Positions 19,414 through 52,431 of a DNA stretch of 64,000 bases are shown here, one piece after another. The stretch comes from Octopus vulgaris (lineage: Eukaryota). Location of the stretch: positions 24,800,001 to 24,864,000 of the forward strand of contig OX597838.1 in NCBI GenBank assembly GCA_951406725.2, read 5' to 3'. The position numbers and the translations under genes were made by a program. Each line of letters opens with the position of its first letter. Within the stretch, counting starts at the first letter, position 1. The notes beneath the pieces were generated by a model. It was not told where the DNA came from and made no database searches. It worked only from the letters and a program-made list of their open reading frames with translations.

Positions 19414-19675
19414 ATCAAAATAAGCAACAATTTAATTTAATTGAACAATGCAATCATTACATCAATTTAAAATGTAGAGCAATCTTACTCTACATTTTAA
19501 ACTGATGTAATGATTGCATTGTTCAATTAAATGGAGTTGCATGAAACGATCTTACTGCATTACCTCTGGATATCCGTGTTGCTTATTTTGATTTTAATCA
19601 CCTTATTTTGAAATTGTATGGATAATACCGTACTAAATTCTGGTGCCTCAACTTAAGTACCATATTCATCTGAAT
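19413..19675. mobile_element. Fold-back repeat in a (TA)n tract, probable Penelope-like end
   Basis: Inner arms 19435-19479 and 19488-19532; outer arms aatcaaaataagcaaca/tgttgcttattttgatt; the same terminus recurs near 6692 and 53148. Confidence 0.55.
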
Positions 19676-40384: not shown

Positions 40385-40840
40385 GAAAGGAGAGAGAGAA
40401 AGAGAGAGAGAGAGAGGGAGAGGAAAGGAGAGAGAGAGAAAGAGAGAGAGAGGAAAGGAGAGAGAGGAAAGGAGAGAGAGGCACAAATTGTTATATGAGG
40501 CAGGTTTGCAGGAGAGCAAATACTGGGTCACGAGTTCAAACCTTGTTAGCGTTGACCTACAAATGTGACTTTAGGGTGACTGGTGGTGGTGGCAGTGGGG
40601 AGTATTGGTAGCAGAGGTGGTGGAGGTGGTGGTAGTAGTAGTGGTGGTGGTGGTGTTGGTGGTGGTGTTATGGTGTTTGCTTCTACATGCATATGTGCAA
40701 AAAGAGGGAATTGTACCTGTGTGTGTGTGTTTGTGTGCATAATAATAATCCTTTCTTATTTTGGCACAAGGCCAGCAATTTTGAGGAGTGGGGAAGTTGA
40801 TAACATCGACCCCAGTGTCCAACTGGTACTCATATTATTG

Positions 40841-40932
40841 ACCACTATGCCATATGCCTGCGGGCATATGACATAGTGGTTAAGAGCGCAGGCTACTAAC
40901 CCCAAGATTCTGAGTTCAAATCAAGGCAGTGA

Positions 40933-40990
<58 letters not shown>

Positions 40991-41117
40991 TATACCAAAA
41001 AAATTCCTTAGGAATGAGAATTCAGGTTGGAGGCAGCCGAAACAAATATCCATCAAATGTAAATGTAAATAATGTAAATAATGTACATAATTCCTCATCT
41101 CTTAAATAGAGAACTGT
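40841..41117 (+). mobile_element. tRNA-headed element with 5' inversion, (AAT)n and a hammerhead-family tail (hammerhead internally deleted)
   Basis: 18-bp inverted duplication 40841-40858/40863-40880; A-box tgacatagtgg and B-box gagttcaaatc; 3' part matches the reverse complement of 52235-52431. Confidence 0.7.
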
Positions 41118-41165
41118 ATTACCTTCTCTTCTTCTATTTCCTTAACGCCATTTTCAAATTTTATA

Positions 41166-41575
41166 GGCATAGGAGTGGCTGTGTGGTAAGTAGCTTGCTT
41201 ACCAACCACATGGTTCCAGGTTCAGTCCCACTGCGTGGCACCTTGGGCAAGTGTCTTCTACTATAGCCTCAGACCAACCAAAGCCTTGTCAGTGGATTTG
41301 GTAGATGGAAACTGAAAGAAGCCCAACATATATATGTATATGTATATATATATGTGTGTGTGTTTGTGTGTCTGTGTTTGAACCCCCTCCCCAACATCGC
41401 TTGACAACTGATGCTGGTGTGTTTACGTCCCCGTCACTTAGCGGTTTGGCAAAAGAGACCAATAGAATAAGTACTAGGCTTACAAAGAATAAGTCCTGGG
41501 GTTCGTTTGCTTGACTAAAGGTGGTGCTCCAGCATGGCTGCAGTCAAATGACTGAAACAAAAGAAAAAGAGTAAA
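41166..41575 (+). mobile_element. SINE-A, full length
   Basis: Near-consensus copy. Confidence 0.9.
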
Positions 41576-52234: not shown

Positions 52235-52428
52235 GCTGTTCTATGTTTAAGAGATGAGGAATTATGAACATTATTTACATTCGACAGATGTTTGTCCTCA
52301 TCTTGTTTGTTGTTAACACAATGTTTCAGCTGATATACCCTCTAGCCTTCATCAGGTGTCTTGGGGAATTTCGAACCTGGGTTCTCATTCCTAAGGTATT
52401 TTTCAATGTTATTATTATTATTATTGTT

Positions 52429-52431
<3 letters not shown>
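52235..52431 (-). mobile_element. Hammerhead-bearing repeat (same family as 40841-41117), tRNA head absent
   Basis: (AAT)n, then ccttaggaatgagaacccaggtt, hammerhead motif, and tail cataattcctcatctcttaaa. Confidence 0.72.
52315..52360 (-). ncRNA. Minimal type I hammerhead ribozyme-like motif
   Basis: gacac-CTGATGA-a-ggct-agagggtatatc-agct-GAAAC-at-t-gtgtt: stem I gacac/gtgtt and stem II ggct/agct; stem III probably ACGT eroded by CpG decay. Confidence 0.65.

Follow-up and report, generated by a model that had tools for sequence, protein, structure and literature searches.

A tRNA-headed repeat of Octopus vulgaris is almost certainly the pseudo-LTR of a Penelope-like element and probably carries a Pol III promoter

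The short, 280-base repeat analysed here belongs to a family whose unit can be identified, with hardly any doubt, as the pseudo-LTR of a Penelope-like element (PLE). The copy in the window (the whole 64,000-nt stretch analysed, C25:24.80-24.86 Mb) is probably a solo pseudo-LTR of an abundant PLE that encodes reverse transcriptase (RT) and a GIY-YIG endonuclease, with a tRNA-Arg-like head that likely serves as a Pol III promoter and sets the 5' end of the RNA. The first-pass annotation had read the repeat as a candidate composite SINE whose last part is a Penelope-like tail, mobilised by Penelope machinery.

Positions are numbered from +1, which is window position 40862 and tRNA position 1, and T1-T172 denote positions in the unit 3' of its (AAT)n tract. 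The focal copy begins with an inverted fold-back copy of the first ~20 nt of its own head (40838..40858, minus strand; alignment and folding), a junction type that recurs in the family. Between 40841-40858 and 40863-40880 there is 1 mismatch in 18 positions (2 mismatches when aligned over 21 bp), and the hairpin of this stub and the head has a z of -9.2. A leader at -7..-1 (40855..40861, plus strand; column counts) overlaps the inverted copy and forms a 5-bp hairpin with +1..+5; the transcript start is predicted at about -6 within it. Next come the tRNA-Arg-like head (40862..40936, plus strand; tRNA alignment), with an A box at 40869-40879 and a B box at 40914-40922, and an (AAT)n tract (40937..40990, plus strand), variable in length, which lies within the pseudo-LTR and is also found in ORF-linked copies. 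The 5' end of the Penelope ORF follows (40991..41090, plus strand; alignment), with a likely start ATG at 41014-41016 and a hammerhead region that is mostly deleted, leaving a 10-nt remnant at 41034-41043. The last part is the optional Penelope "tail" (41091..41121, plus strand), covering about T149-T172 plus a few bases that match the ORF continuation, and defined by bimodal 3' ends and pair statistics. No target site duplication (TSD) of at least 6 bp was found at the focal copy, the only copy searched, and the SINE fragment to its left has no continuation to its right. From this structure we infer a tailed unit with an 18-21-bp fold-back stub, which later suffered internal deletions.

The second copy in the window (52237..52431, minus strand) is 5'-truncated within (AAT)n, headless and tailed, and contains a minimal type I hammerhead at 52360-52315 whose motif is damaged by two CpG-type changes. 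Two blocks of the focal 3' part, of 44 nt (93% match) and 33 nt (88%), align with 52238-52403 read as reverse complement. The focal head agrees in 43 of 73 positions with a tRNA-Arg(ACG) gene of the source genome, scoring 8 where shuffles reach -5 at most; its A and B boxes are both mutated and fail the A+B descriptor, and neither ARAGORN nor Rfam called a tRNA in it. Everything that the first-pass annotation had noticed in the letters is recovered: the inverted copy of the head, the (AAT)n, the tail aligning to the second copy, and the hammerhead there with its remnant here. The tRNA-like head with A and B boxes stands as tRNA-derived and with the boxes placed, although in the focal copy they are mutated.

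Some other repeats were observed in the window. The focal copy is flanked by two abundant ones, of which that at 41165-41570 has a tRNA-like head and at least 10 near-full copies in the window, and that at 40741-40843 has ~20 matches. A 98-nt near-perfect inverted repeat at 19435-19532, with a sub-threshold Rfam match to mir-5014, is possibly a MITE-like or fold-back insertion. The Rfam miRNA matches in the window were rejected as simple repeats. In the second copy, T28-T41 (52381-52368, minus strand) contains a second B-box-like motif, 3' of the likely start codon and 5' of the hammerhead.

The genome searched comprises 2.8 Gb in 227 contigs. A head search retrieved 29 other loci, and 28 of them carry the tail unit at most 1 kb downstream, which confirms the fixed order of head, (AAT)n, hammerhead and tail proposed beforehand and rules out an accidental juxtaposition of two repeats at an (AAT)n tract. 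Genome-wide, 11,492 exact matches to a 21-mer from the tail unit were counted (reversed control, 0), and this number is a lower bound on the family copies. In DNA-like runs under five organism labels, at least half of the sampled family words were present, indicating that the family is common to related species.

Several unit copies extend upstream into coding sequence, and a protein search with this upstream sequence scored 150 matches among 61,620 candidates. Among 29 endonuclease-anchored loci, 27 show the stop codon, a 29-bp spacer and then the head, and in 23 the head is contiguous with both the ORF and the tail unit. The full order is ORF stop, 29-bp spacer, head, (AAT)n, hammerhead-bearing ORF N-terminus and tail. 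Because the head is contiguous with the Penelope ORF in 27 of the 29 loci, the unit is best taken as a pseudo-LTR and not as a separate SINE. The near-full-length locus L159 consists of an inverted pseudo-LTR, a partial pseudo-LTR, a 2.3-kb ORF and a pseudo-LTR. Its ORF matches RVT_1 in Pfam (E=6e-8); Pfam scans of the ORF gave no match for the GIY-YIG endonuclease, which was recognised by translated motifs and by homologs carrying PF01541. RT followed by GIY-YIG in a single ORF is the arrangement by which EN+ Penelope elements are recognised. The homolog P0019 (847 aa) is 57% identical in RT, and at L194, L200, L230 and L232 its alignment runs from residue 18 over the hammerhead/tail and into the ORF, so that the hammerhead/tail part represents the first ~50 codons of the ORF. 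In a by-eye check of the linker no Penelope/Poseidon clade motif was seen, and a PDB search gave a single weak match, to a group II intron RT.

Partial-tandem pseudo-LTRs with the ORF start inside the repeat were found at L159, L194, L198, L200, L202, L230 and L232, and at L232 the partial tandem is directly visible. About 10 long copies enter the 5' pseudo-LTR. Only L235 starts at the head start; L232 reads past it, and the others break in the tail unit or (AAT)n. Two unusual joins were also observed: at L235:831-2936 (element orientation) the head is fused directly to an internal ORF position, and at L042 an ORF fragment is joined to position -4; both are possibly template jumps at the RNA 5' end. 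Candidate sister families were rejected, as the 12 low-scoring ORF matches are mostly damaged members of the same family. L226:3560-4110, 73% identical and without (AAT)n, is either an old copy or a sister family, and the faint head-like stretch 3' of its ORF does not score above shuffles. Frequently the (AAT)n tract abuts the 3' end of another element (L122, L125, L126, L135, L166, L153, L172, L133 and L044). The partners at L122, L125, L126, L135, L166 and L044 look like restriction-endonuclease-type LINEs, which we take to be Dong/R4-like; either LINEs target the tract, or Penelope copies insert into the AAT tails of LINEs.

The ends of copies were summarized for 100 anchors, the first 100 of the 11,492 exact matches, which lie on one contig (C1:0.17-18.6 Mb, 18 Mb) and count both members of many inverted pairs. 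Inverted partners accompany 68 of the 100 copies, and 44 of 48 de-duplicated inverted pairs have exactly one tail. The 3' ends are bimodal, with 42 falling at T170-172 and the bulk of the remainder at T139-154, around T148; the tail length is ~24-31 nt, slightly shorter than the 30-40 bp quoted for PLEs. No poly(A) was seen in the scored tailed copies (0 of 23). Other copies likewise have short fold-back stubs, 6-20 nt in length, and loose ends at -8 that continue as an inverted head were found in 348, 269 and 261 reads of three RNA runs and in 79 contigs. Head-to-tail neighbours are only a few among the 100 anchors. Optional tails and inverted partners are known for PLEs (PMC8557442, in part). 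In an anole element, two internal RT start sites observed in vitro correspond to the tail, and the ORF start also lies inside the hammerhead (sections of PMC11167929).

From the above, mobilisation by Penelope machinery, as the first-pass annotation had claimed, is supported by the inversions, the optional tail and the lack of poly(A). Its proposed checks point the same way, with 5' inversions in 68 of 100 copies and no L1-type ends, either as poly(A) (0 of 23) or as a TSD at the focal copy. The autonomous Penelope that it expected to share the tail does exist, but the whole unit is shared, head included (27 of 29), and not the tail alone. The supposed Penelope-like tail turns out to be the ORF's own N-terminus, and the independent composite SINE gives way to a unit that sits in an autonomous element and has short copies without diagnostic changes.

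The hammerhead core boxes are intact in 59 of 91 spanning copies, and 33 of 91 have every feature scored. In an 8-copy alignment its helices pair in 90% of cells, against 15-55% in slid controls, and there is one common non-CpG core change, at the free position 7 (26 of 121). Rfam did not detect this minimal hammerhead, which was identified by a motif-plus-helix descriptor. Single-strand folding did not single it out (z -0.4 to -1.9), as expected for a motif that requires a dimer. An ordinary, dimer-requiring Penelope minimal ribozyme is the best explanation, as far as the primary structure tells. Among the 20 breaks in the tail unit, 3-4 lie at T87-92, near the predicted cut between T89 and T90, where a palindrome is also located. 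Probably the hammerhead does not define the ends of copies.

The family head scores 52-63 against tRNA-Arg(ACG), with shuffled maxima of 33-38, and this is the best of 11 anticodon classes in a tRNA library that is incomplete and for which the search pattern for Arg-ACG genes had itself been derived in part from the head. By its sequence the head is tRNA-derived, with a broken acceptor stem, and not a functional tRNA. About 20 tRNA-Arg(ACG) genes were observed in a tandem cluster at C2:211.886-211.907 Mb, partly at ~207-bp spacing.

Copies of the family stop preferentially where this head begins. The 100 anchors include 20 that break inside the tail unit, 55 with a head directly upstream, and 25 that end in or near (AAT)n or have only an inverted or partial head. 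The 5' ends of the 55 headed copies, 9 of them placed or corrected by eye, fall at +21..+45 (4 copies), +6..+20 (10) and -7..+5 (30 of the 41 copies reaching +5); the spacer holds the ends of 4, and 7 continue into the ORF. The 5'-end rate at -7..+5 is 0.074 per nt versus 0.0023 in the pooled background (33x). In whole-genome exact counts, a head 20-mer occurs 5,148 times and a spacer 20-mer ~50 nt upstream 947 times. An AT-rich 8-mer at -37..-30, which contains the ORF stop codon, lies at -31/-24 relative to a start at -6, and the A box begins 13 nt after -6; the -31/-24 position affects type 2 Pol III promoters (PMC7279448, in part). Two independent solo copies (L131 and L147) were observed to start exactly at -26 in the spacer.

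The pile-up could instead be a structural hotspot, in which the templates would be long Pol II RNAs and either their cDNAs would fold back or anneal at the two palindromes overlapping the head start or the RT would stall there, the head being an old passenger insertion. We consider this unlikely, and the evidence has two sides. The head start overlaps a 5-bp GC-rich hairpin (-7..+5) and a 6-bp palindrome (+4..+9), so part of the pile-up may be structural; inverted partners are frequent (68 of 100), and some breaks lie at a palindrome at T91-98. However, 17 of 30 solo copies, which have no inverted neighbour and were hand-pooled from three samples, end in -7..+12 as well (p=8e-16), although "solo" copies may be pairs that lost their partner. 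Palindromes at least as long are also present in the ORF, and the A and B boxes, the start and the AT-rich box are spaced in a way that suits a Pol III promoter.

An independent Penelope-mobilised SINE, whose short copies would be Pol III masters amplifying in trans, is likewise improbable. Short copies retain both boxes (A and B) as well as the ORF's 5' portion and make up ~80% of head-bearing copies, and with internal priming a defined 3' end is unnecessary (PMC11167929, in part). Against this, 40 ORF-linked and 93 short units are not separable: they vary at the same positions, each class contains both linked sub-variants, and the non-CpG divergence is 4.2% for long and 3.8% for short copies. 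No variant separates the classes among 28 variable columns, the lowest p being 0.03, at the tail boundary. Variants common to both indicate that the short copies are most likely solo pseudo-LTRs from head-started transcripts; their sequences point to no separate short lineage, but a weak one would go unseen in a star-like family. Short copies also lack the upstream AT-rich box and ORF sequence past the tail, and the anole protein required 172 nt of ORF (same source, in part).

A Pol II start near -6, from a TATA-like box overlapping the stop codon and with incidental tRNA boxes, is very unlikely. It would suit a coding RNA, which normally needs a cap; the AT-rich box ~30 nt upstream is equally readable as a TATA box, and the internal promoter of D. 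virilis Penelope resembles TATA-less LINE promoters (PMC2377424, in part). Against it, the decayed tRNA is best preserved in its A and B boxes, which lie at the expected distance from the start. RNase P cleavage of a long transcript at tRNA +1 is scarcely credible: 5' ends do cluster near +1, but the acceptor stem is broken, neither ARAGORN nor Rfam finds a tRNA, and the -2/-1 bases are kept in 12 of 12 symmetric junctions counted.

Transcript data bear on these readings as follows. The three RNA-seq runs, which appear unstranded and whose depth mirrors genomic copy structure, show no pile of read starts. The ORF has no fixed TTTT, and 12 of 100 tail units contain any TTTT; the ORF's depletion of T4 does not reach significance (p=0.07; L159, synonymous shuffling), and a control LINE stretch is also T4-free. 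T4 avoidance was therefore rejected as a proof of Pol III read-through, since the pooled counts (T3 426, T4 29) are non-independent across copies and shuffling was not significant. With no start seen, T4 depletion not significant, palindromes at the head start and few headed full-length copies, the structural hotspot and the Pol II start keep some probability beside the Pol III promoter that we prefer.

With the head as a Pol III promoter, a copying route can be proposed. RNA would start at about -6 in a tandem master and run through into the next ORF. The Penelope protein would begin cDNA synthesis inside this RNA, at T~148 and T~172, sites that lie ~25-30 nt from each other; in vitro work on the anole Poseidon element showed such two-site internal priming (PMC11167929, in part). 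Priming on the first pseudo-LTR would yield a ~280-nt cDNA ending at the RNA 5' end. This cDNA end is self-complementary and hence would fold back or anneal to a second cDNA, which would produce head-to-head pairs with one tail and also the focal 18-21-bp stub; integration would then occur with or without an inverted partner. The head acting as its own promoter would explain why most copies are short and SINE-like.

SINEs are normally chimeras with a borrowed LINE tail, and here an autonomous retroelement appears to own the SINE head and to give off SINE-like copies, at least ten thousand of them. Should the promoter be Pol III, the unit would be a missing link from Penelope pseudo-LTRs to Sm-alpha/retrozyme-type repeats. 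That the autonomous element shares the headed repeat runs counter to what is expected of autonomous partners where a repeat has a Pol III head. With its fixed 5' end, its two 3' ends and junctions in the thousands, the family offers a genome-scale test of two-site priming and inverted-pair formation. Repeat annotation is likely to divide this one element into "SINE" and "Penelope" families.

Similar arrangements were searched for in 39 foreign Penelope loci whose sequence extends 200 nt or more past the ORF; 6 of them have a hammerhead and 1 (L239) has A/B boxes. The corrected A+B descriptor recovers 12 of 29 own-family copies and the hammerhead motif-plus-helix descriptor 4 of 29 (false positives in shuffled sequences, 6 of 1950 and 0 of 1950, respectively), and with such low sensitivity little weight can be given to the absence of A/B boxes in 38 of the 39 foreign loci. 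L239:2758-3400, on a metagenome contig, shows an ORF stop, an AT-rich box, A/B boxes ending in CCA, a short AAT run, a hammerhead-like motif (read by eye, with an imperfect helix I) and an ORF start; its tRNA similarity is borderline (38, shuffled maximum 37). This single contig of a distant Penelope lineage is possibly an independent tRNA-headed pseudo-LTR. More speculatively, the autonomous Penelope might be transcribed end to end by Pol III through a captured tRNA promoter, with the stop codon doubling as a TATA-like box, the hammerhead overlapping the start of the ORF and L239 having the same design; we hold this only tentatively. If true, tRNA-headed pseudo-LTRs would form a recurring class and a direct Penelope route to SINE-like and Sm-alpha-like repeats.

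The literature searched gave no account of a tRNA head in a PLE pseudo-LTR or of this octopod unit; Repbase, Dfam, SINEBase, the 1994 paper of Ohshima and Okada or the octopus repeat library of PMC13282606 may hold a consensus, probably without the present interpretation. Ohshima and Okada reportedly described tRNA-derived octopus SINEs (OK, OR1 and OR2) in 1994, and OR1 and OR2 are said to be of tRNA-Arg origin. OR2 is listed as a CORE SINE (PMC4758252, in part), which does not fit the octopus Penelope unit.

The closest known systems are the Penelope/Poseidon PLEs, including the anole PAc (Frangieh 2024, PMC11167929, in part), which, like the octopus element, have a single ORF with RT followed by a GIY-YIG at the C terminus, a hammerhead over the ORF start, an optional tail, an inverted 5'-truncated partner and AT-rich targets. 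Unlike them, the octopus pseudo-LTR has a tRNA-derived head and (AAT)n, and most copies end at the head start; the covered parts of the PLE papers mention no tRNA head. The hammerhead resembles the minimal type I motif known from PLEs (Cervera and de la Pena 2014, PMC4209133, in part) in the core boxes, an extra base before helix II, a G10.1-C11.1 pair, 5-bp helices I and II and a loopless palindromic helix III, but its predicted cleavage triplet is GUU. Schistosoma Sm-alpha/Sj-alpha (PMC6765202, in part) also have a Pol III-type head followed by a hammerhead. The first-pass annotation had drawn the analogy with Sm-alpha; those repeats, however, are tandem, non-coding monomers cut by the ribozyme, whereas the octopus unit is dispersed or head-to-head, has ends that the cleavage site probably does not set and is part of an autonomous coding element. 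Non-LTR retrozymes (PMC7229834 and bioRxiv 10.64898/2026.07.22.740005, both in part) are short hammerhead-bearing relatives of PLE pseudo-LTRs; they form head-to-tail tandem arrays giving circles, whereas head-to-tail neighbours are only a few among the 100 octopus anchors. Term searches found no mention of a tRNA head or Pol III in the available text of these papers. In the TRIMp3 elements Cassandra, Helenus and Ajax (Kojima 2024, PMC10886601, in part), a Pol III promoter derived from a small RNA likewise lies within the terminal repeat. They are non-autonomous LTR elements whose autonomous partners are expected to use Pol II and to lack the shared repeat, while in octopus the autonomous Penelope itself carries the headed repeat.
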